DNA from: Spirochaetota bacterium
GTDB lineage: Bacteria > Spirochaetota > UBA4802 > UBA5550
Direction: 5' to 3'
Length of the DNA stretch: 64,000 bases
NCBI GenBank assembly: GCA_963664815.2
Contig: CAXXHB010000003.1
Span: forward strand, 3,648,001-3,712,000
Made by a program: the position numbers and the translations under genes. Numbering within the stretch: the first letter of the stretch is position 1; every line of letters starts with the position of its first letter. The notes under the pieces were generated by a model. The model was not told where the DNA came from. It did no database searches and was given only the letters and a program-made list of their open reading frames with translations. This document shows, one piece after another, positions 38,344 to 51,344 of this stretch.

Positions 38344-38745
38344 GTCTGGCAGGTCCGGGAGCTCGCAACCCCCTTTCCCCCATAAGAACCTTACGTGAAA
38401 GTTTCTACAACGGGTACTTACTGCGTCCGCCTTCAAACGGCTCAATCCGTCTGAAGCTGATTATACTACCAGCCGCTGTTATCTGCTTTATTCCCATTTT
38501 TCTATAATAGAAATAATCAGAATCTTCTTTTAAAAATGGGTTCCTGTCAAGACTTATCATTCTGTGCCGTACAATTTTAATGTGTCCCGCAGTAATGAGA
38601 ATCTCCTCATCAGAGCAGAAAGTTTAAGTACCGGTTTTTAAGCCATAAAGAATTTTTCATCGGGTGTCTGAATCTGCCCCATCTCCATAGAGCCTGAAAA
38701 AGAACAGTATCGAGTTTTTTAAAGGCTTCTTTTAAAACCATTCCA
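38344..38745 (-). mobile_element. Group II intron 3' remnant, copy 2 (decayed maturase tail + DV/DVI)
   Basis: Homologous to 43791-44215; minus strand has gagccg...ctttcacgtaaggttc and ends cctgccagac. Confidence 0.8.
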
Positions 38746-38994
38746 CGGAGTTTTTGAAATTTTGCATAAAATCGCCATTCACAGTCTATCAGATAACTGT
38801 AGAAATAATTATTTTACGGGATTATTATTTTTTCCGGTAAGATCATCGGATTATTATTGAATGTTATTACAAAGACCGGGAGAAAATGGGATTCAATTCC
38901 TATATATACTGTTCGATCTTAATAGCCCCTTCAAGTATTACCGGATCTGAATCTGATTCAATTCCTATATATACTGTTCGATCCCAGTGGTTTC

Positions 38995-39119
38995 GTCCAA
39001 CAGAGTCTTAACATAGTTGTTGTCTGAAGATTGAAATTATCTGTTCAATGTTTTTATACCGCTAATAAAGATTAGCGGTTTTTTTGAGGCAACTACGTTA
39101 AGACTTCTATAAGTTATGC
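38995..39119 (-). other. attC-like site (family B, 125 bp)
   Basis: Minus strand GCATAAC...GTTGGAC; imperfect arms agagtcttaacatagttg / caactacgttaagacttct. Confidence 0.85.
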
Positions 39120-39146
39120 GAAGGTCTGCCCCCGGTTTTCAATAGC

Positions 39147-39479
39147 TTAATTTCTGATTAATCTTTTTAAGATTATATCTTCGAAATTTCTTCTAGAGTC
39201 AATCATTGAAAGAATATATACTTTTTGTTCTTCTATTCTATAAACTATTCGCCATGGAGTTATAATCAGTTCTCGATAATTACTAATATTATGAAAATCA
39301 AGCTCAGGAACAGTTCTTCCTCGTTCAGGAAAATTTTCTAATTTGATTGTTTGCTTTTTGATTTTTTCAAATATTTCTGCGGCTGTATTCAGACTATCTA
39401 ATGAAATATATTCAATTATTTCAATAAGATCATCTTGTGCAATTTTTGTCCAATATACTGTATATTTTTTTGATGTCAT
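39147..39479 (-). CDS. RelE/ParE family toxin (copy 1)
   Basis: VYWTKIAQDDL...FPERGR.VPE...YRELI..PWRIVYR. Confidence 0.9.
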   Translation of the reverse strand: MTSKKYTVYWTKIAQDDLIEIIEYISLDSLNTAAEIFEKIKKQTIKLENFPERGRTVPELDFHNISNYRELIITPWRIVYRIEEQKVYILSMIDSRRNFEDIILKRLIRN

Positions 39480-39483
39480 ATTC

Positions 39484-39762
39484 TTATCTTTTTTTTAGAA
39501 TTTTATCTTCGATTGCAGAAAAGAATGAATTCTGCTCTGTGAATTTTCCATTTTTTACATCGTTTTCTCCCATGGAAATTAGTTTTAAAATCCCTATCGC
39601 GTTTTGCATTGAATCATAACTTTCTGTATCCATTAATACAGCTTTTGCTTCCCCATTTTGAGTTATGATAATTGGACGATGAGTTTCGTTAACTTGATCA
39701 AGCATGTTTGCAGCATTTGCTTTTACGAAAGAAATGGGGCGTATATCTTGTTTGGTATTCAT
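39484..39762 (-). CDS. Phd/YefM family antitoxin (copy 1)
   Basis: IRPISFVKANAA...PIIITQNGEAKAVL. Confidence 0.9.
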   Translation of the reverse strand: MNTKQDIRPISFVKANAANMLDQVNETHRPIIITQNGEAKAVLMDTESYDSMQNAIGILKLISMGENDVKNGKFTEQNSFFSAIEDKILKKR

Positions 39763-39861
39763 TTTTTTATCCTCTATGGTGTTTCTATTGATCTAAATAT
39801 GGTACTAAATTAAGTTTTAAAGGTCAAGAATAATTTTCTAAAACGACGGGGGCAGACTTTC

Positions 39862-39924
39862 GCATAACGTTAAGAAGAGTATCTTAATCAATCTTCTCCG
39901 ATTGAGATACTCTTCAAGTTGGCC
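39862..39924 (-). other. attC-like site (family C, 63 bp)
   Basis: Minus strand GGCCAAC...GTTATGC; arms gaagagtatctt..atc / gattgagatactcttc. Confidence 0.85.
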
Positions 39925-40068
39925 GGCTTTTTTATAACATCACTTCGACGCCGCTCATTTCGACATACTCAATACAAGCAGTGCATCGCCTGTTATATGC
40001 CGGCAGGTGGTCACTGAGCCTGCCGTCTATGATGAAAATCAACACTTTTTAAAAATATTTATAAAAAA

Positions 40069-41154
40069 TCATGCAGCTAATGCTGACTCATATTGTTTCA
40101 GCTTTGCAGCATGGTTTTTTTCATCAGTATAGTAATACATTTTATTCTCTTTCAGCATATTATAAATGATAACGATGATCTTGCGCATTACTGCAACACG
40201 AACCTTTCCGGCATTCTTACCTTTCCTTTTTTCAAAATAAAACTTATGAAGCCTGTCACTTGAATCAATGAAATGCTTTATACTCTCTGTCATTAAACTG
40301 GCAGTCAATGTCCTTGACTGTTTATTCACCTTACCGACATGTGCTGTGTTCCCTGATGCATCTATTCGGGGAGCCGTTCTTAAATACGAGCATAGTTTTT
40401 TAGCACTGGGAAATCTGTTAATATCTGCAATATCTGACATTATTGCAATAGCAAGAAAAGGGCTTATCCCGCGAATACTTGTCAGAATCCGTATCTCTCT
40501 GTAAAATATCTTCCCTTTCTTCAGAATTGCTTTCTTTATATTCTCTTTTTCATTTTCAAGAGAATTGAGCGTTGATAGCAGAATATTGATTTGAACTGAA
40601 AATACCTCACTGACAGGCAGACTCCTGATCCTGTCCTGTATGTGGTTGTATGAAAGATTTTCCTTTGAAAATCCGAAAATACCATTCTGACGGAAAAGTG
40701 ACCTGATACGATTCTTTGTCATACATGCCTGTTTCTTGAGCATCTCATACGTTACAAACATGCTTCTCAACTCGCTAACTTCTTTTGACGGAATGTAGAT
40801 TGTCGGAAATTCATCCGATGATTTATCATAGCATACATAATATTTCAATTTCTTTGCCAGTTTAATGGCATCAATCTTATCAGTCTTCTTCCTGGAATTC
40901 GATATTATTGAAAACTTGTAAGGATCTACAACATAGACCTCCTTTACATATTCTTTAACCTGTTCCACAAACCAGAATGTATTGGTTGATGCCTCAACGA
41001 CTATATAATCCTCAATCATCAGTTTACTTAAAAATCTCTTAAATGCTTCTGTTTTTAAACTGACTGTTTCCATTGTCAGTTCGTCCGTTTTTTCCCCTAA
41101 AACTGCTGCTTTAAAACTATCTGTGTGAAGATCTATCCCATAAAACATTGACAA
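40069..41154 (-). CDS. IS110-family transposase/recombinase
   Basis: GIDLH, VVEAS, KTDKIDA (DEDD); RGIS...RF.SAKKL.SY...P...ASG. Confidence 0.93.
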   Translation of the reverse strand: MSMFYGIDLHTDSFKAAVLGEKTDELTMETVSLKTEAFKRFLSKLMIEDYIVVEASTNTFWFVEQVKEYVKEVYVVDPYKFSIISNSRKKTDKIDAIKLAKKLKYYVCYDKSSDEFPTIYIPSKEVSELRSMFVTYEMLKKQACMTKNRIRSLFRQNGIFGFSKENLSYNHIQDRIRSLPVSEVFSVQINILLSTLNSLENEKENIKKAILKKGKIFYREIRILTSIRGISPFLAIAIMSDIADINRFPSAKKLCSYLRTAPRIDASGNTAHVGKVNKQSRTLTASLMTESIKHFIDSSDRLHKFYFEKRKGKNAGKVRVAVMRKIIVIIYNMLKENKMYYYTDEKNHAAKLKQYESALAA

Positions 41155-41164
41155 TCAATCCCCC

Positions 41165-41400
41165 TTATGATATTTTTGATACTCAAGACCAACTTGACGG
41201 GTTAAATGAATGGTCCACTCGTCTATTCGGGTTTCAGGGAGAATATCCCGTTCCCATTCTTTTGGTCAGGAAGGAGGCTGGACTAAACGAAGCAACGGGC
41301 TTTTTGTAATGTCACTTACAGATATCCCAGGCAAGCTCTCAGCCTCCTTCTCTTCTTGAATATCTAAGAAGAGAATTTACCTCATTCCTGCAACCGTCAA
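41165..41400 (-). ncRNA. Putative bridge/seek RNA region of the IS110 element
   Basis: Stem aaggaggctg/cagcctcctt encloses cgaag and ggcaagctc, which match the target; cgtctat matches the donor end. Confidence 0.65.
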
Positions 41401-41450
41401 GATTTTGTTGATTGTCATCATAAAAACGAAGTGCAAACGTCATGTTTGCT

Positions 41451-41957
41451 CGACAGAACCGCCTGAGCAACAGCCCGATATAATATTAATGGATTTTAAA
41501 TTACCGGATTTATAATTGCAAGAATAATTCGTATGTAGAAATTTGAATAAATAAACAATTGCATCTTTATAACAACCAATATATCTGCTTTTAAAACACT
41601 GTTAAACGGCATTCCCAAGAATAAATTATCATTATTTCTCAGTTATCAGAATAAAAGTATCCCTTCATGGTCTTTTTATCGTTACCATAATCATAAGATA
41701 TTAATATGCAGATAATAATCTACAACCGCTCTGGTTCGCCGGAGGTGAACGATACCTCACCGGTTCAGGAATCTCTTTTACAATAAGCCTTCCGGTTTTG
41801 CATGTAGGGCAGCATGAAAGATTTTTACCTGTGACGCGCAGATAGATTTCACTCCATGTCTGCGGTATACTTTCATTATTCTTTTGAATTTCGTAAAACT
41901 CGCGGCATGCCTCAACAGCCTTCTTTTTATTCCGGTGAGAGAGAATTCCGAAGTACC
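41451..41957 (-). pseudogene. Truncated copy of the 3' end of the IS91-like transposase cassette (47141-47640)
   Basis: Near-identical sequence including gacagaaccgcctgag and YFGILSHRNKK...RSPP. Confidence 0.9.
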
Positions 41958-41959
41958 AA

Positions 41960-42152
41960 CAGGGCAAACAGTCCTACCCTTTGCCTGATGTTTCCCGGTC
42001 AGCCCCTGGCGGAGCAGGATGAGCTGAGCAAAGAGCTTCCTGAGGATACAGCTTCCCTGTTCTGGAAATATTTCAGGATTGATATAACTCTCTGCAGGGA
42101 GTGCGAAAAGGGACACATTCATTATATCCATGGCCAGTCGACTTACGGTTAG
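41960..42152 (+). pseudogene. Possible C-terminal fragment of a different IS91-type transposase
   Basis: FRIDITLCRECEKGHI resembles the terminal CxxCxxG motif of these transposases. Confidence 0.4.
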
Positions 42153-42405
42153 CTGTTATAAAGAGTATAGCTGTACTTCACAGATTTAAAAAACTGTTTC
42201 ATAGAGAGGATAAGTATGCCCGGAGCTTTTAAAATTTTGCATAAAATCGCCATTCACAGTCTATCAGATAACTGTAGAAATAATTATTTTACGAGTTTAT
42301 TATTTTTTCCGGTAAAATCACCGGATTTTTACTGTATGTTATTTCAAAGATCGGGATAAAACGGTATTCAAATTCCTATATATACTGTTCGATCCCAGTG
42401 GTTTC

Positions 42406-42530
42406 GTCCAACAGAGTCTTAACATAGCTGCTGTCTGAAGATTGAAATTATCTGTTTAATGTTTTTATACCGCTAATAAAGATTAGCGGTTTTTTTAAGG
42501 CAACTACGTTAAGACTTCTATAAGTTATGC
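42406..42530 (-). other. attC-like site (family B)
   Basis: Near-identical to 38995-39119; begins 9 bp after the stop of the 409-aa ORF. Confidence 0.85.
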
Positions 42531-42539
42531 GTAGTGCCA

Positions 42540-43769: not shown

Positions 43770-43790
43770 TGGAACCTCGTTTTAATGGCA

Positions 43791-44215
43791 GTCTGGTAGG
43801 TCAGGGAGTTTGCACCCCCTTCCCCCCATAAGAACCGTACGTGAAAGTTTTACCACAGGCACTTCCTACGGTCGCCCTTCATACGACTCAAGCCGCCTAA
43901 AGCTGATTATACAACCAGCCGCTGTTATCTGTTTGTATTCCCATTTTTCTATAGTAGAAATAATCAGAATCTTCTTTTAAAAATGGGTTCCTGTCAAGAC
44001 TTATCATTCTGTGCCGTACAATTTTAATGTGTCCTGCAGTAATAAGAATCTCCTCATCAGAGCAGAAAGTCCAATCCCTGTTTCCTATGCGTTTCCAGTA
44101 CCGGTTTTTAAGCCATAAAGAATTTTTCATCGGGTGTCTGAATCTACCCCATCTCCATAGAGCCTGAAAAAGAACAGCATCGGGATTTTTAAAGGCTTCT
44201 TTTAAAACCATTACA
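43791..44215 (-). mobile_element. Group II intron 3' remnant, copy 1 (maturase tail + DV/DVI)
   Basis: FQALWRWGRFRHPMKNSLWLKNRYW...RH...NPF; gagtcgtatga...ctttcacgtacggttc; ends cctaccagac. Confidence 0.85.
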
Positions 44216-44401
44216 CGGAGCTTTTGAGACTTTGCATAAAATCGCCATTCACAGTCTATCAGATAACTGTAGAAATAATTATTTTACTGGATTATTATTT
44301 TTACCGGTAAAAATCACCGGATTATTACTGTATGCTATTTCAAAGATCGGGATAAAACGGTATTCAAATTCCTATATATACTGTTCGATCCCAGTGGTTT
44401 C

Positions 44402-44526
44402 GTCCAACAGAGTCTTAACATAGCTGTTGTCTGAAGATTGAAATTATCTGTTCAATGTTTTTATACCGCTAATAAAGATTAGCGGTTTTTTTGAGGCAAC
44501 TACGTTAAGACTTCTATAAGTTATGC
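44402..44526 (-). other. attC-like site (family B)
   Basis: Near-identical to 38995-39119. Confidence 0.85.
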
Positions 44527-44553
44527 GAAGGTCTGCCCCCGGTTTTCAATAGC

Positions 44554-44886
44554 TTAATTTCTGATTAATCTTTTTAAGATTATATCTTCGAAATTTCTTC
44601 TAGAGTCAATCATTGAAAGAATATATACTTTTTGTTCTTCTATTCTATAAACTATTCGCCATGGAGTTATAATCAGTTCTCGATAATTACTAATATTATG
44701 AAAATCAAGCTCAGGAACAGTTCTTCCTCGTTCAGGAAAATTTTCTAATTTGATTGTTTGCTTTTTGATTTTTTCAAATATTTCTGCGGCTGTATTCAGA
44801 CTATCTAATGAAATATATTCAATTATTTCAATAAGATCATCTTGTGCAATTTTTGTCCAATATACTGTATATTTTTTTGATGTCAT
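44554..44886 (-). CDS. RelE/ParE family toxin (copy 2)
   Basis: Protein identical to 39147-39479. Confidence 0.9.
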   Translation of the reverse strand: MTSKKYTVYWTKIAQDDLIEIIEYISLDSLNTAAEIFEKIKKQTIKLENFPERGRTVPELDFHNISNYRELIITPWRIVYRIEEQKVYILSMIDSRRNFEDIILKRLIRN

Positions 44887-44890
44887 ATTC

Positions 44891-45169
44891 TTATCTTTTT
44901 TTTAGAATTTTATCTTCGATTGCAGAAAAGAATGAATTCTGCTCTGTGAATTTTCCATTTTTTACATCGTTTTCTCCCATGGAAATTAGTTTTAAAATCC
45001 CTATCGCGTTTTGCATTGAATCATAACTTTCTGTATCCATTAATACAGCTTTTGCTTCCCCATTTTGAGTTATGATAATTGGACGATGAGTTTCGTTAAC
45101 TTGATCAAGCATGTTTGCAGCATTTGCTTTTACGAAAGAAATGGGGCGTATATCTTGTTTGGTATTCAT
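44891..45169 (-). CDS. Phd/YefM family antitoxin (copy 2)
   Basis: Protein identical to 39484-39762. Confidence 0.9.
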   Translation of the reverse strand: MNTKQDIRPISFVKANAANMLDQVNETHRPIIITQNGEAKAVLMDTESYDSMQNAIGILKLISMGENDVKNGKFTEQNSFFSAIEDKILKKR

Positions 45170-45268
45170 TTTTTTATCCTCTATGGTGTTTCTATTGATC
45201 TAAATATGGTACTAAATTAAGTTTTAAAGGTCAAGAATAATTTTCTAAAACGACGGGGGCAGACTTTC

Positions 45269-45331
45269 GCATAACGTTAAGAAGAGTATCTTAATCAATC
45301 TTCTCCGATTGAGATACTCTTCAAGTTGGCC
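45269..45331 (-). other. attC-like site (family C)
   Basis: Identical to 39862-39924. Confidence 0.85.
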
Positions 45332-45511
45332 GGCTTTTTTATAACATCCTGTTATATGCCGGCAGGTGGTCACATAGGGGGTAGAGAGTGCTAAAGCTAA
45401 CAGTCTTGAGCCGTATGCATACCTGCGATTTTTATTCTCTGAGTTTCCATTGGTGTCGACCAGAGAGGAAATGTTGAAGCTTCTGCCATGTTTTGTCACA
45501 AATGATATGAT

Positions 45512-47385: not shown

Positions 47386-48642
47386 TTAATATATAGATAA
47401 TAATCTACAACTGCTCTGGTTCGCCGGAGGTGAACGGTACCGTACCGGTTCAAGAATCTCTTTTACAATAAGCCTTCCGGTTTTGCATGCAGGGCAGCAT
47501 GAAAGATTTTTACCTGTAATACGCAGATAGATTTCACTCCATGTCTGCGGTATACTTTCATTCTTCTTTTGAATTTCGTAAAACTCGCGACATGCCTCAA
47601 CAGCCTTCTTTTTGTTTCTGTGTGATAGAATTCCAAAGTATCTGATGCGGACAAACCTTCTCGGTACAACATGCATTATGAAGCGGCGAATAAAAGACTC
47701 TGCCGGGAGTTCCATGAGCTTTTCCCTGTTCCCGTCAGCGTAATCCCTGTATCTGAATCTTATTATATCATCTTTAACAGAAACTATCCGGTGATTGCTG
47801 ATGGCTATGCGATGAGTATACCTCGCAAGATATTCAATTACACTCTCTTTGCCCTGGAAGGATTCTTTGAGATATACAACCCACTCCGCGGCGAAGAGTG
47901 AATCAATCATTGTCTGAAAATTTATGGCATCAGTGACATGCGTACCTTTAAGATATAATTTTTCTGTTCTATAAAGTTCCTTCAATCCCTGCAGAAAGAG
48001 GCTTCTGAACCGCAGCTTCAGAACCTGCACAGGTACAAAATAGTTATTCGGAGCATGAATCCATCTCTGCTTTTTCTCCGAATAACCTCCGCCCGGAACC
48101 ACACAATGAAGATGGGGATGTAAATTAATCTTCTGCCCCCATGTATGTAGGATGGAAAAGAATCCTATATCAGCGCCGAAGTATTTTTCATCACCGCTGA
48201 CAGAGAGTAGTGTCATTCTGCATACATCAAACATAAGGTCGTAGATAACTCTTTTGTTTCTGATAACAACCGGGTTAAGCATATCTGGAAGTGTGAATAC
48301 AACATGAAAGTAAGTGAACGGGAGAACTTCATTTTTTCTTTCCATAATCCACTTCTCTTTTTTCATCGACTGGCACTGTGGACAATGCCTGTTTCTGCAT
48401 GAGTTGTAGAGAATCACTTTATGGCCGCAGATGCTGCATTCCTCAACTCTTCCGCCGAGGGCTTCTGTCCTGCAGATCTCAATTGAACGCATCACCTTTC
48501 TTTCATGCAAAGAGACTTCGGGATGTTTCAGAAGATAAGACTCATCGTAATTCCGGAATATTTCATTAACGGTTGGCTGATTCATTTTTAAATCTGTCTG
48601 CATAGACATCAAGAGGACTTCGGGCCACGGTCTTCTCTTCAT
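47386..48642 (-). CDS. IS91-family (Y2 HUH) transposase
   Basis: CRT..LGG, YNSCRNRHCPQCQ, YFHVVFTLP, LHTWG...HPHLH, YLARY, RIRYFG; the true start is probably MNQP (~48583). Confidence 0.95.
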   Translation of the reverse strand: MKRRPWPEVLLMSMQTDLKMNQPTVNEIFRNYDESYLLKHPEVSLHERKVMRSIEICRTEALGGRVEECSICGHKVILYNSCRNRHCPQCQSMKKEKWIMERKNEVLPFTYFHVVFTLPDMLNPVVIRNKRVIYDLMFDVCRMTLLSVSGDEKYFGADIGFFSILHTWGQKINLHPHLHCVVPGGGYSEKKQRWIHAPNNYFVPVQVLKLRFRSLFLQGLKELYRTEKLYLKGTHVTDAINFQTMIDSLFAAEWVVYLKESFQGKESVIEYLARYTHRIAISNHRIVSVKDDIIRFRYRDYADGNREKLMELPAESFIRRFIMHVVPRRFVRIRYFGILSHRNKKKAVEACREFYEIQKKNESIPQTWSEIYLRITGKNLSCCPACKTGRLIVKEILEPVRYRSPPANQSSCRLLSIY

Positions 48643-49429
48643 TCAGATGCACATAAACCAGAGTCGTAGTCAGATGTCTGTGTCCCAGAAACTTCTGAAG
48701 TTGAAACACTCCGCTCCCTGTCTCTATCATATGTGTCGCAAAGGAGTGACGCAGTGTATGAATACCGCACTGTTTTGTTATACCGGCTCTCTTCTTCGCG
48801 CGATGATACGCATGCTGTACTGCCCTGATTGACATCTGTTCACCTGGGTATCTTCCGCAAAACAGCCAGTTGTCCGGCCTGTAGGTTTTCCAGTATTGCT
48901 CAAGCTGGATTAAACATATTTCTGAAAGCAGGGTATACCTGTCCCTGCCCCCTTTGGCATCCCGTACTTTAAGACGCATTGAATCCCGTGAGATATCGTC
49001 TACCTTCAGATTTACAAGTTCACCCACTCGGAGACCTGAGGAATACGTGAGCATCAGTATTGTTTTATGTTTCAGATTATCAGCGCTGTGAATAATCCGA
49101 AACACCTCTTCTACCGTAAATACTTCCGGAAGTTTTCTTTTCTTTTTCTGAATGGGAATGTTTTCAACTTCAACGTCTCTGCCGATTGTCTGGATAAAAA
49201 AATAGCATATTGCGCTTCTTGCCTGACGGAATGATGATTCTGATAGTTTCCGGTCTTTGATTAAGTAATACAGGTAGTCTTTTATGGTTTCTTTTGTGAT
49301 CTCCTCCGGCGGTTCCTTGCAGTATTCAAGAAAACTGCTCAAGCTCCGGTAATAGGTGATCTGTGTCCTCAGGCTGTATCCGCGAAGGGCAAGGTCTCTT
49401 TTGTAGCTTTGTAAAATCTGTTCTGACAT
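48566..49429 (-). CDS. Tyrosine recombinase (IntI-related, without the integron-specific insertion)
   Basis: LRGYS.RT..Y SAM-like N-terminus; YSSGLRVGE, AKGGRDR, HTLRHSFATH, LGH...TTLVY. Confidence 0.95.
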   Translation of the reverse strand: MSEQILQSYKRDLALRGYSLRTQITYYRSLSSFLEYCKEPPEEITKETIKDYLYYLIKDRKLSESSFRQARSAICYFFIQTIGRDVEVENIPIQKKKRKLPEVFTVEEVFRIIHSADNLKHKTILMLTYSSGLRVGELVNLKVDDISRDSMRLKVRDAKGGRDRYTLLSEICLIQLEQYWKTYRPDNWLFCGRYPGEQMSIRAVQHAYHRAKKRAGITKQCGIHTLRHSFATHMIETGSGVFQLQKFLGHRHLTTTLVYVHLNEEKTVARSPLDVYADRFKNESANR

Positions 49430-49652: not shown

Positions 49653-51344
49653 TCAAGTTAATGACCACCGAGTATTTCTTGTATTACCTTTTTTTTGAAT
49701 GAATTTTATCTGTGAAAGGAAACTACTTAAACTAGATTTGTTTGAAAATGTTAATATGTCTGATAGTTCATCACTTGAAGCTATATTATATTTTTTTAAA
49801 TATGTATATAGCGAAACATATTTACTTGAGTTTGGTGCGATTTTAGGCTTTTTTGAAATTTTAAAATAATCAAGAAATTCATTACTTACAGAAATAAAAA
49901 TGTCATTCTTATCACCATGTATTACGAAATAATGCTTTAAAATACCTTCTTCTATTGAAGATTTTATGTCTTCCCATGGATTTAACGAAATTTTCATCAT
50001 TTCTTTTTCCAGGTCTTTACATGAAATAGTACCTTTAAGTGAGACTTTATTTAATATGAATAATTCACTCAATTTAAACTTATCAATATTATTTGTTGTT
50101 ATTACAAAGATTTGTGGGATACAATATTCAGTAACCATTGAGACTTCTATTGAATCATTATTTTCACAAAAAATCGGAAAACTTCGTCCATAGATCAATG
50201 ATCCAATTCCCATTCTTAAAACACCCATTCCTGCTCTATCAACAAGATTAAAGAGCATTAAACATTTTGCTAATTCTTTATTTCTATGACGTGGATCATG
50301 AAATGCAATATTAGATTCATTTACACCACCATAAAAATTCCCTGGATTTGTTATTTTTATACCATTTGATGTGAAAATAATTGATATTAATCCATTGATT
50401 GAATAATCTCGATGAACAATAGCATTTAATAATGCTTCATGAAAAGCTTTTTCATCTAACGCAGGGCAATTATATTTATTGTCATTGAATTCTATTTGTA
50501 ATATTTTATTATATTCGCTAAATTTATTTTTAATAATTTTTATTGAATTCCAAATATTATCGCTCCAAATATAGTTTTGAAGTAACTCACCTTGATTGGA
50601 TTTATAACTAAAACGAAATTCATAATCACCTAGGTGTTGTTTTATTTGATCTTTATGGCCGAACATCAACACTGCTGTTTTTGTAACAACACCATTTTTC
50701 GTTGCATTAATTGCTTCCAAAAAGTCAATATTACTAATATCCGTATTAAGATTTCTTCTAAATATAAAATCTTTTTTTGCTTCAATTAATGTTTCCTGAT
50801 TTAATTCTTCAATTTTTATATGATCAATCTCATCAGCACTCCAATCATATGTCTGAAGATTCTTTACAGCAGATTCTATTTCGTATGGCTCCATAGGTCT
50901 GCTGCTTTTACCATCTCTAATGTATACTTTACCACTTGTAGTTGTTACTAGTACGTGGTTTATTTTAGGAACATCAATAACCACATAACGGATAAGTTTA
51001 TGAAAATGATAATAAATTTTAAAATCAATTTTCGGCTTTATTCTTCCTCTTAATCTTTCGGATGTAACGTCAAAATCAATTTCTTGAAATCCATTTAATT
51101 GCTTTTCTATTAAAGCTAAATCATTTTTATCGTTATCGATTACTCCAATGATTATTTTACCACCAAATTTATTAGCAAGAGCTACAAATTCGTTTGCTAA
51201 TTCCTTGTCATTATTCAAGGCATTAATATCTTTATAATTTTTGAATTCAATAGTTTCCGATTCAACAGATTGACTTGGTTCTTTTTCAAGTTTTAAAAAT
51301 ATTTGATCAATTGTTTTTATACTCATAATATCCTCAATTATCAA
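49653..51344 (-). CDS. AlbA_2 (Schlafen-like) + HATPase_c_4 domain protein
   Basis: ESETIEFK, VALANKFGG.IIIGV.D, HEALLNAIVHRDY, NPG, RNKELA, VDRAGMG. Confidence 0.88.
   Translation of the reverse strand: MIIEDIMSIKTIDQIFLKLEKEPSQSVESETIEFKNYKDINALNNDKELANEFVALANKFGGKIIIGVIDNDKNDLALIEKQLNGFQEIDFDVTSERLRGRIKPKIDFKIYYHFHKLIRYVVIDVPKINHVLVTTTSGKVYIRDGKSSRPMEPYEIESAVKNLQTYDWSADEIDHIKIEELNQETLIEAKKDFIFRRNLNTDISNIDFLEAINATKNGVVTKTAVLMFGHKDQIKQHLGDYEFRFSYKSNQGELLQNYIWSDNIWNSIKIIKNKFSEYNKILQIEFNDNKYNCPALDEKAFHEALLNAIVHRDYSINGLISIIFTSNGIKITNPGNFYGGVNESNIAFHDPRHRNKELAKCLMLFNLVDRAGMGVLRMGIGSLIYGRSFPIFCENNDSIEVSMVTEYCIPQIFVITTNNIDKFKLSELFILNKVSLKGTISCKDLEKEMMKISLNPWEDIKSSIEEGILKHYFVIHGDKNDIFISVSNEFLDYFKISKKPKIAPNSSKYVSLYTYLKKYNIASSDELSDILTFSNKSSLSSFLSQIKFIQKKGNTRNTRWSLT

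Follow-up and report, generated by a model that had tools for sequence, protein, structure and literature searches.

An IS110-family insertion sequence of a Spirochaetota bacterium with a predicted upstream guide RNA of mirrored guide order

Introduction

How does an insertion sequence (IS) find one particular site within a genomic repeat? The question is raised by a stretch of 64,000 nucleotides (nt) from the genome of a Spirochaetota bacterium (assembly GCA_963664815.2, contig CAXXHB010000003.1, positions 3,648,001 to 3,712,000 of the forward strand), which is called the window here and to which all coordinates refer unless a contig is named. The window carries, at 40026-41426 on the minus strand, an element of the IS110 family with a long non-coding region upstream of its recombinase gene. 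A preliminary description, made from the letters alone, had proposed that short segments of this region match the target and the ends of the element in the manner of a bridge RNA. Bridge RNAs and seekRNAs are being developed as programmable recombinases, and the design rules, for example on the half-site that each loop strand reads and on the strand that is the first to be exchanged, derive from very few elements: IS621, IS622, ISEc21 and some IS1111 members. We asked whether the leader of this element encodes such a guide and how its parts are ordered. The reading that we favor, with a probability of about 0.88, is that of an intact IS110-family insertion sequence that would move by RNA-guided site-specific recombination, with its guides in mirrored order.

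Boundaries of the element and its target site

The segment 39900-41550 was searched against the genome of the same organism (5.2 Mb in 3 contigs), which gave 22 matches. The flanks of the element are parts of a repeat of about 290 base pairs (bp) that is also present empty in this genome. In the other repeat copies the two flanks are contiguous and overlap by exactly 2 nt, CG. Empty sites read GAGCC[A/T]GC-CG-AAGTGCAAAC, and the occupied site reads GAGCCTGC-CG-[element]-CG-AAGTGCAAAC. Because the empty sites join the flanks with this CG overlap, the element was delimited to 40026-41426, an intact IS110-family insertion sequence of 1401 bp with one CG core on either side; its relatives are 1304-1547 bp long. 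The target rebuilt in the preliminary description is borne out by the same empty copies, which join as GAGCC[A/T]GC-CG-AAGTG with the 2-nt overlap, and the two CG dinucleotides that it had named are found at 40024-40025 and 41427-41428. Insertion at a specific site and no target duplication beyond the shared 2-nt core agree with what defines the IS110 family. Close relatives occupy homologous GAGCYTGY-CG sites.

The core at the left-end junction (41427-41428) is followed by the flank 41429-41433 (AAGTG on the plus strand), which is the left target half (LT) and reads CACTT-CG in the sense orientation. The core at the right-end junction (40024-40025) borders on the flank 40016-40023 (GAGCCTGC on the plus strand), the right target half (RT). 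In sense orientation the left end comprises 272 nt, or 278 nt when counted up to the ATG, and the right end is 43 nt long. Inverted repeats of 17 bp sit in subterminal position, 4 nt and 2 nt inside the ends: the left one, TATGATGACAATCAACA, at 41406-41422 and the right one, which matches it at 16/17 positions, at 40028-40044 (both on the minus strand). The combination of such repeats with a long upstream non-coding region had been singled out as notable; it is present, and there is published precedent for it in the form of rare exceptions (PMC11187229).

The recombinase and its relatives

The open frame at 40069-41154 (minus strand) encodes 361 amino acids (aa), or 359 aa when counted from the ATG at 41148 (gene 40069-41148); an in-frame TTG lies at 41154. 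Both PF01548 (3.2e-11) and PF02371 (7.6e-13) were found in the protein, and the NCBIfam model NF033542, 'IS110 family RNA-guided transposase', matched with 179.2 bits against a cut-off of 140. The catalytic residues D6, E52, D90 and D93 and the serine S265 are invariant in an alignment of the protein with eight relatives. With both Pfam domains and a match above the NCBIfam cut-off, the earlier assignment to the IS110 family in the wide sense, that of RNA-guided DEDD recombinase elements, is confirmed.

All seven sequence items named in the preliminary description lie where it had placed them, and six were read correctly; the seventh, a supposed donor match CGTT, is spurious (see below). In 5000 shuffles of the 272-nt leader, the frequency was 2.4% for a 9-mer match with at most one mismatch, 3.6% for the 7-mer donor match, 35% for CTTCG and 86% for AACG. 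At the single locus two of the matches are suggestive and two are not. These frequencies are also what favors the view that the agreement between leader and flanks is coincidence or a captured piece of the target repeat and that the protein chooses the site: CTTCG and AACG alone are at chance level, and each of the two longer matches turns up in 2-4% of shuffles. As single-locus matches are only suggestive, the case was made from relatives.

A match at E <= 1e-20 was present in 18 of 201 genomes (the element's own and 200 relatives). A metagenome scan with an alignment of five proteins gave 582 pattern matches, 232 of which encode a relative, and the best 80 of these 232 were kept (34-89% identity). 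One contig match, 75% identical, carries the name Spirochaetota. Including the window there are 90 loci in all, 82 of them with at least 150 nt upstream of the gene. From 60 non-identical segments of 159 nt, 47 leaders were aligned and 13 segments were dropped: nine for a wrongly placed anchor (L065, L072, L075, L076, L089, L095, L097, L110 and L123), three as near-duplicates (L047, L053 and L085) and L049, which is without the interior of the target loop described in the following section.

Fold of the leader

Three parts make up the fold of the 272-nt leader upstream of the gene: a 5' hairpin, then a target-binding loop and then a donor-binding loop. Its predicted free energy in the window is -68 kcal/mol (z = -3.2). 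The minimum-free-energy fold has a 5' stem-loop with a 10-bp stem at 41348-41375, and the target-binding loop spans 41270-41350 (both on the minus strand), closed by an outer stem of 41340-41350 with 41270-41280. The perfect 10-bp inverted repeat 41271-41280/41340-41349 that had been pointed out before is this conserved outer stem. By RNAalifold and a separate pair count, it has 10 pairs, 8 of which show changes on both sides, and 87% of its cells are paired. Two small inner stems, UGGG/CCCG and GGG/CCC, are conserved too. For the structure as a whole 85.3% of cells are paired, as against 32-54% when the partners are slid by 1-3 columns, and the covariation score is 0.326 versus 0.189 in shuffles (0/500).

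A covariance model was built from 43 relatives, which did not include the window or the three relatives closest to it. It found a single match in the 64-kb window, at 41208-41371 on the minus strand (92.6 bits, E 1.8e-26), and two matches genome-wide, the intact copy and a truncated copy (49.6 bits). An Rfam scan of 39000-42500 returned only 8 weak chance matches, all under the gathering scores, and an intact copy of the target repeat scanned in the same way had no Rfam match. Since these scans gave no match above a gathering score, no curated RNA family covers the leader or the target repeat. One relative departs from the common fold: in L049:165-323, a 51%-identical metagenome relative, a short hairpin replaces the target-loop interior, i.e. 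both guides and the inner hairpin, and leaves outer stem and donor loop intact. A natural target-loop deletion may be what is seen here.

Target guides

Four guide segments were taken from fixed columns of the alignment and compared with the DNA flanking each element. The 5' target guide, GAGCUUGCC (41330-41338, minus strand), is complementary to RT1-8 on the sense strand of the right target half and to one core base; in the window its partner is G-GCAGGCTC, with one U·G wobble. For the comparison the donor motif served to place the right-end boundary; 33/47 loci were usable in this way, with 31 non-redundant guides, and the 8 nt preceding the last guide base were held against the reverse complement of the first 8 flank bases. 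Cognate pairs agreed at 6.0/8 positions on average and non-cognate pairs at 2.06 (standard deviation 1.36). A score of at least 6 was reached by 24/33 cognate pairs and by 1.5% of non-cognate ones. Shifting the register by one base lowered the mean to 2.1-2.6, and the observed mean was reached in 0/20000 permutations. The segment GGCAAGCTC that the preliminary description had noted at 41330-41338 is present, and its proposed role as a guide is upheld by this covariation with the right flanks.

The 3' target guide, GCUUCG (41288-41293 within 41285-41293, minus strand), corresponds to CTT of the left target half and the core CG, and the UUU that follows it (41285-41287) matches the first left-end bases in a handshake-like manner. 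Here the left-end boundary was set independently by the motif N4-TATGA/TAATGA, which was found at 41/47 loci and left 35 non-redundant guides. An exact 8-mer search with the 3' guide itself had been too strict for this purpose: in its 34 non-redundant cognate pairs there were 0 mismatches in 2 and 1 mismatch in 11. With the motif-defined boundary, the four bases before the core (LT1-4) agreed at 3.51/4 positions in cognate pairs versus 1.05 in non-cognate ones (0/20000 permutations), and the handshake bases (2-3 after the core) agreed with the first left-end bases at 2.10/3 versus 1.45. CGAAG at 41288-41292, one of the items named earlier, is therefore a real guide by the comparative data, though CTTCG is so common in shuffles. 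Among the 33 relatives in which both ends are defined, 30 have CG as the core and 3 have TG, and both junctions and both 3' guides agree on it in 32/33 loci.

Compensating changes were found among close relatives. The window has the guide ..UGC-C and the target ..TGC-CG, and L025 and L045 have ..UGU-C and ..TGT-CG. A copy on a metagenome contig (X6) shows the same guide change at 41331 together with a ..TGT-CG flank. L060 and L070 differ at one guide position and also at the matching target position. The preliminary description had further proposed a GAGCTTGCCGAAG-type sequence as the ideal target. This is what L047, which is 81% identical and has identical guides, occupies: it sits in AACACTT-CG-ACAAGCTCAGTG, which on the other strand is GAGCTTGT-CG-AAGTG, with a perfect GAGCTTG match to the 5' guide.

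Because the loci are kin, the permutation figures overstate their independence and are not the strongest argument; the fixed register and the compensating changes in close relatives appear to be the stronger one. Guide columns track unrelated flanks in 31-35 non-redundant relatives in one fixed register, and shifted registers and permuted pairings drop to background. This is hard to reconcile with site choice by the protein alone or with a captured piece of the repeat, and we consider chance matching highly improbable.

Donor guides and guide order

A donor-loop motif, C[CT][CT][GT]NATA[AG]NNN, is conserved in 69/82 loci. On its 5' side the donor guide region is CCAAAAGAA (41257-41265, minus strand), within which AAAAG (41259-41263) is complementary to TTTTT, the left-end bases 1-5, apart from a wobble at base 1. 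Compared with left-end bases 1-6 it scored 3.86 in cognate and 2.79 in non-cognate pairs (0/20000). AAAAG, and not CGTT, is the real 5' donor guide: CGTT is present at 41249-41252 as described, and its resemblance to the donor is due to chance, as it belongs to a variable inner donor-loop hairpin whose sequence even the 75%-identical relative has not conserved, CGTT being absent there. The 3' donor guide, AAUAGACG (41220-41227, minus strand), is identical in sense to the right end, ATAGA, plus the core CG; the CGTCTAT reported earlier at 41220-41226 is present and corresponds to this guide. An exact 7-mer match to it lies downstream of the gene in 37/47 relatives, including the variants ATAGTCG, ATAACTG and ATAGATG, a match that is partly circular since the right-end boundary of the relatives was located by the 3' donor guide itself. 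The donor-loop bases after the core agreed with the first right-flank bases at 0.94/2 versus 0.48 (0/20000).

Could the target loop alone serve as guide, like a short seekRNA, and the donor-like segment be a binding site of the recombinase or a leader for translational control that resembles the ends through sequence conservation? Across the clade there is almost no variation in AAUAGACG or in the right end, so that their agreement could be mostly conservation; the 5' donor guide gives a weak signal, there is pairing of the region with the translation start (see below), and short seekRNAs covering the target matches alone suffice for ISEc21 (PMC11187229). However, the 3' donor segment varies along with the right end (ATAGTCG, ATAACTG, ATAGATG, and ATAGGAG in ISLin1), and covariation of the two post-core donor bases with the first bases of the target is expected of a handshake guide and not of a mere binding site. 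We therefore judge guidance by the target loop alone to be improbable, and continue with a leader that guides through both loops. In the relatives, which come from genomes and metagenomes, all four guide segments and the core covary with each element's own flanks and ends (0/20000 permutations for each). Folding and covariation across homologues had been suggested as a check of the first proposal, and it came out in its favor, the target guides and the 3' donor guide falling into columns that covary with flanks or ends. A structured RNA encoded in the non-coding end, with loops that covary with the DNA of target and donor, is in keeping with the IS110 family.

The order of the guides follows from these assignments. 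Right target half and left end are read by the 5' guides, which are antisense to both; left target half and right end are matched by the 3' guides, whose sequence is that of the sense strand. Such an order, with the flank by the right end read 5' and the flank by the left end 3', is of the IS1111 type and is opposite to that of IS621 and ISEc21, as far as the text of the papers on these two elements, rather than their sequences, allows comparing polarity.

Circle junction, leader helices and proposed life cycle

When the two ends are abutted they form TTGATT-N17-TATGAT, a predicted promoter of the circle junction. The -35 box TTGATT (40037-40042) lies in the right subterminal repeat, and the -10 box TATGAT (41417-41422) is formed by the first six bases of the left one. 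In relatives, the N4-TATGA/TAATGA box is found in 41/47 aligned loci, and TTGA[CT]N precedes the left-end box by 15-19 nt in 29 of the 33 loci with both ends defined, 17 nt being the commonest spacing.

The segment between donor loop and start codon is paired with the 45 nt that directly follow the -10 box. Beside the start codon, UUGAUUGUCA (41149-41158, minus strand) is complementary to the leader at 41408-41417, and a second long-range helix joins 41394-41401 with 41193-41200, so that together the two helices enclose the entire guide RNA. Duplexes of leader and trailer had a mean of -21.2 kcal/mol in cognate and -16.3 kcal/mol in non-cognate combinations (0/5000). The leader helix may couple folding of the RNA to translation or control translation.

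Taken together, the following life cycle can be proposed. Excision would abut both ends around a single CG core and create the promoter TTGATT-N17-TATGAT. From it the 272-nt leader would be transcribed, and probably also the recombinase gene behind. The leader RNA would fold into 5' hairpin, target loop and donor loop. In the target loop the 5' strand GAGCUUGCC would pair with the sense strand of the flank destined for the right-end side, and the 3' strand GCUUCG with the antisense strand of the left-end flank, core included, the next UUU matching the left end. In the donor loop AAAAG would read the start of the left end and AUAGACG the right end and the core. The DEDD/Ser recombinase would then exchange strands at the CG cores, inserting the circle into GAGCYTGY-CG-AAGTG sites of the genomic repeat. 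What the sequence comparison shows is the boundaries, the conservation of the fold, the covariation of guides with DNA and the family membership; transcription, RNA ends, catalysis, current activity and programmability are inferred from it here, and the same holds for the earlier suggestion of a programmable recombinase, for which the element is a candidate.

Other copies, empty sites and activity

A second copy of the element (G000:C3:2542327-2543594) is 98% identical and has an intact frame of 361 aa. Its right end joins the CG of CACTT-CG-ACGCCGCTC, the other arm of the same repeat, so that its site shares only the core and the half-site read by the 3' guide. Insertion at half-matching off-target sites is mentioned in a preprint abstract (10.64898/2026.08.31.748434). 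The first 137 nt of the left end are missing from the second copy, and its upstream flank is unique in the genome. Homology with the window copy sets in precisely at the CG within GCTT-CG-TTTAG, where the 3' target guide is encoded; this CG is one of 31 internal CG dinucleotides in the 1401 bp. The exact truncation at this point suggests that guide-coding DNA may act as a pseudo-site. Elsewhere on this contig, at G000:C3:3563057-3563355, a different IS110-family transposase gene is represented by a fragment (PF01548, 29 bits) that is interrupted by a stop codon.

Several observations weigh against RNA-guided movement of the element, in addition to the kinship of the loci and the circularity mentioned above. 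The 5' donor guide gives the weakest signal of the four guides; in the window it is short, with 4 Watson-Crick pairs and 1 wobble, and leaves the core unpaired. The donor loop has a weakly supported outer stem (62% paired), and the genome contains no copies besides one intact and one truncated one. Insertions are missing from three near-perfect empty sites (GAGCCAGC-CG-AAGTG) and from at least 7 further sites with 8/8 pairing, wobbles allowed. The predicted circle junction ...CATAGA-CG-TTTTTATG... was absent from the genome in the own-genome search. The unoccupied good sites mean that either pairing alone fails to predict occupancy or the element is barely active.

The last points raise the prospect that the guides are genuine and the copy is by now an immobile relic. 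One intact and one truncated copy, good empty sites left unoccupied and a junction sequence missing from the genome would all fit a relic, and the same two junctions recur in contigs of three runs with two organism labels, which suggests old, fixed insertions. On the other hand, the reading frame is intact with its catalytic residues, both ends, the boxes of the junction promoter and all guide segments are intact, and the guide fits the occupied site better than it fits the empty ones. We regard loss of mobility as a possibility of some weight, and consider it the less probable state of this copy; the reading of an intact, RNA-guided element is kept in what follows.

Neighborhood and nature of the target repeat

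The target repeat was also considered as a strong palindrome of the repetitive extragenic palindrome (REP) kind. The z-score of its DNA fold is -1.0, 30/200 shuffles fold as well, and the label was dropped; only the 7-bp arms CACTTCG/CGAAGTG stand out. The target as an integron attC site was likewise rejected, as a nearby tyrosine recombinase reached 164.6 bits versus the 265-bit cut-off for integron integrases.

Dense repeated intergenic modules lie at 38344-39120, 41958-42535 and 43790-44530, with many copies in six regions of contig C3. The target repeat lies in this array, whose modules separate small cassettes such as the ParE/Phd pair at 39147-39762, which is duplicated at 44554-45169; the duplicated unit with this toxin-antitoxin pair measures 987 bp and is 99.8% identical (38956-39941 = 44362-45348). 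A short open reading frame within a repeat module (43897-44211, minus strand) weakly matches GIIM, the maturase domain of group II introns (E 4.7e-4, which does not reach the cut-off), and the modules may include intron debris. An IS91-family Y2 transposase (NF033538, 429 bits) at 47386-49429 on the minus strand overlaps the end of a 287-aa tyrosine recombinase, which is below the cut-offs of the XerA-like and integron-integrase models. Adjoining this cluster of mobile elements, at 49653-51344 (minus strand), a protein of 563 aa is encoded that has Schlafen AlbA_2 and RecG-C-terminal-like HATPase domains.

Classification and meaning of the guide order

On all defining features taken together the element fits neither of the two described groups, IS110 and IS1111. 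Features that it shares with the IS1111 group are the top-strand match 5' of the bottom-strand match and subterminal inverted repeats within the range of 7-17 bp; the RNA gene in a long right end downstream of the recombinase gene, which also belongs to that group, is lacking here, the right end measuring 43 nt. With the IS110 group it has in common a long left end with the RNA gene and a short right end. It departs from the guide-order rule of this group (IS621/ISEc21) and from the rule of no subterminal repeats or ones of only 2-3 bp, its own being 17 bp long with 16/17 matches.

It might nevertheless truly belong to the IS1111 group, its RNA gene having been relocated from right end to left end, as in ISMtsp17, in which case there would be no separate lineage. 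Such an origin would account for the 17-bp subterminal repeats with short terminal extensions and for a top-strand guide 5' of the bottom-strand guide, as in ISEc11, ISPa11 and ISKpn4 (PMC11187229), and a few IS1111 members do have an upstream non-coding region (PMC11187229). The proteins argue otherwise. Among the three named references compared by BLASTP, IS4321 (IS1111 type, plasmid R751) aligned with only 25 bits over 106 residues, whereas ISLin1 and ISMch4 gave 112 bits each over about 355 residues; a full-length relation to IS1111-type transposases was not found with this single IS1111-type reference and no tree. ISLin1 is labelled IS110 and is 16-25% identical to the 203 ISfinder transposases shown (PMC11187229 source data), and the ISMtsp17 protein shares a cluster with IS4321 (PMC11208160 supplement). 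The recombinase thus appears to group with a deep-branching ISLin1/ISMch4-like lineage and not with IS1111-like proteins, and we consider membership in the IS1111 group unlikely.

A bolder suggestion, which we put forward tentatively and think more probably wrong than right, is that this ISLin1-like IS110 lineage, widespread in Spirochaetota and metagenomes, represents a third, so far undescribed architecture of bridge recombination. It would combine an upstream RNA as in IS621 with target and donor engaged in an orientation rotated by 180 degrees relative to the genes (IS1111 polarity), with long subterminal repeats and with a palindromic CG core. The published rule that an upstream RNA means the bottom-strand guide comes first would then rest on too few examples, the strand exchanged first would be the antisense strand of the element, and the position of the RNA gene and the polarity of the guides would have changed independently in evolution. 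The leader helix masking the start codon and the truncation point of the second copy may be part of this biology. No account of an IS1111-type guide order with an upstream RNA gene was found in the literature, in so far as the accessible portions of the sources extend; a 2026 preprint with 32,190 bridge RNAs, 86 models and strand-signed covariation maps (10.64898/2026.10.21.760802) may already contain the class.

In summary, we regard this as a genuine bridge-RNA element that is ordinary for the most part and represents an architectural variant on which little has been described. For annotation it is an ordinary, active-looking IS110-family element in an intergenic repeat, and with bridge RNAs now catalogued by the tens of thousands a flipped guide order is a specialist's point. 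The locus and its roughly 45 relatives are nonetheless a clean natural data set in which every guide is readable, and the order is flipped with respect to the two characterised elements with an upstream RNA gene. If upheld experimentally, it would warn against applying the IS621 orientation rule to all such elements, and it would offer a compact recombinase of 359 aa with a palindromic CG core and an orientation set by the guides alone.

Comparison with known systems

The IS621 locus is ordered LT-core-[left end ... right end]-core-RT, with the left end encoding the RNA (PMC11208160, PMC11208158); its 5' guides have the sense-strand sequence of what they read, namely the left target half and the right end (PMC11208160). 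Like IS621, the element described here has a DEDD-plus-Ser recombinase with the same two Pfam domains, an RNA in the long left end upstream of the gene and a promoter, here a predicted one, that is split across the circle junction. The order within the RNA is also the same, 5' hairpin, target loop and donor loop, with a long 5' guide (8-9 nt), a short 3' guide followed by handshake bases and a 2-nt core read by the guides. Unlike in IS621, the guides read the opposite half-sites relative to gene orientation, the core is the palindromic CG instead of CT, and the subterminal repeats are 17 bp instead of 2-3 bp long. The IS621 protein appears to be only distantly related. With ISEc21 the element shares the upstream non-coding region and a circle-junction promoter, predicted in our case (PMC11187229). 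Its guide order is the reverse of that of ISEc21, where the bottom-strand match comes first, and no long subterminal repeats are reported for ISEc21 in the same source (PMC11187229).

IS1111-type seekRNAs have the top-strand match first, and the elements have subterminal repeats and a downstream RNA gene (PMC11187229). The element resembles this group (ISEc11, ISPa11, ISKpn4; IS4321) in its subterminal repeats with short terminal extensions, in the position of the top-strand-complementary match 5' of the bottom-strand one and in its site-specific insertion into repeats (PMC11187229). It differs in that the RNA gene lies upstream here and downstream there, and the IS4321 protein aligns only partially (25 bits). 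ISMtsp17, one of the few IS1111 members with an upstream non-coding region, has subterminal repeats as well (PMC11187229), but its transposase is of the typical IS1111 type.

The nearest of the named references is ISLin1 of Leptospira interrogans, which ties with ISMch4 as the best of the three in BLASTP (26% identity over 359 aa, 112 bits) and for whose RNA no paper with an analysis was found. Its core is GA and not CG, and its guide and stem sequences are unrelated. In the one copy whose guides were read by eye (L130), ISLin1 resembles the present element in that its leader lies upstream, its 3' guides equal the left flank and the right end in sense, and a TATGAT box is found 4 nt inside its left end.

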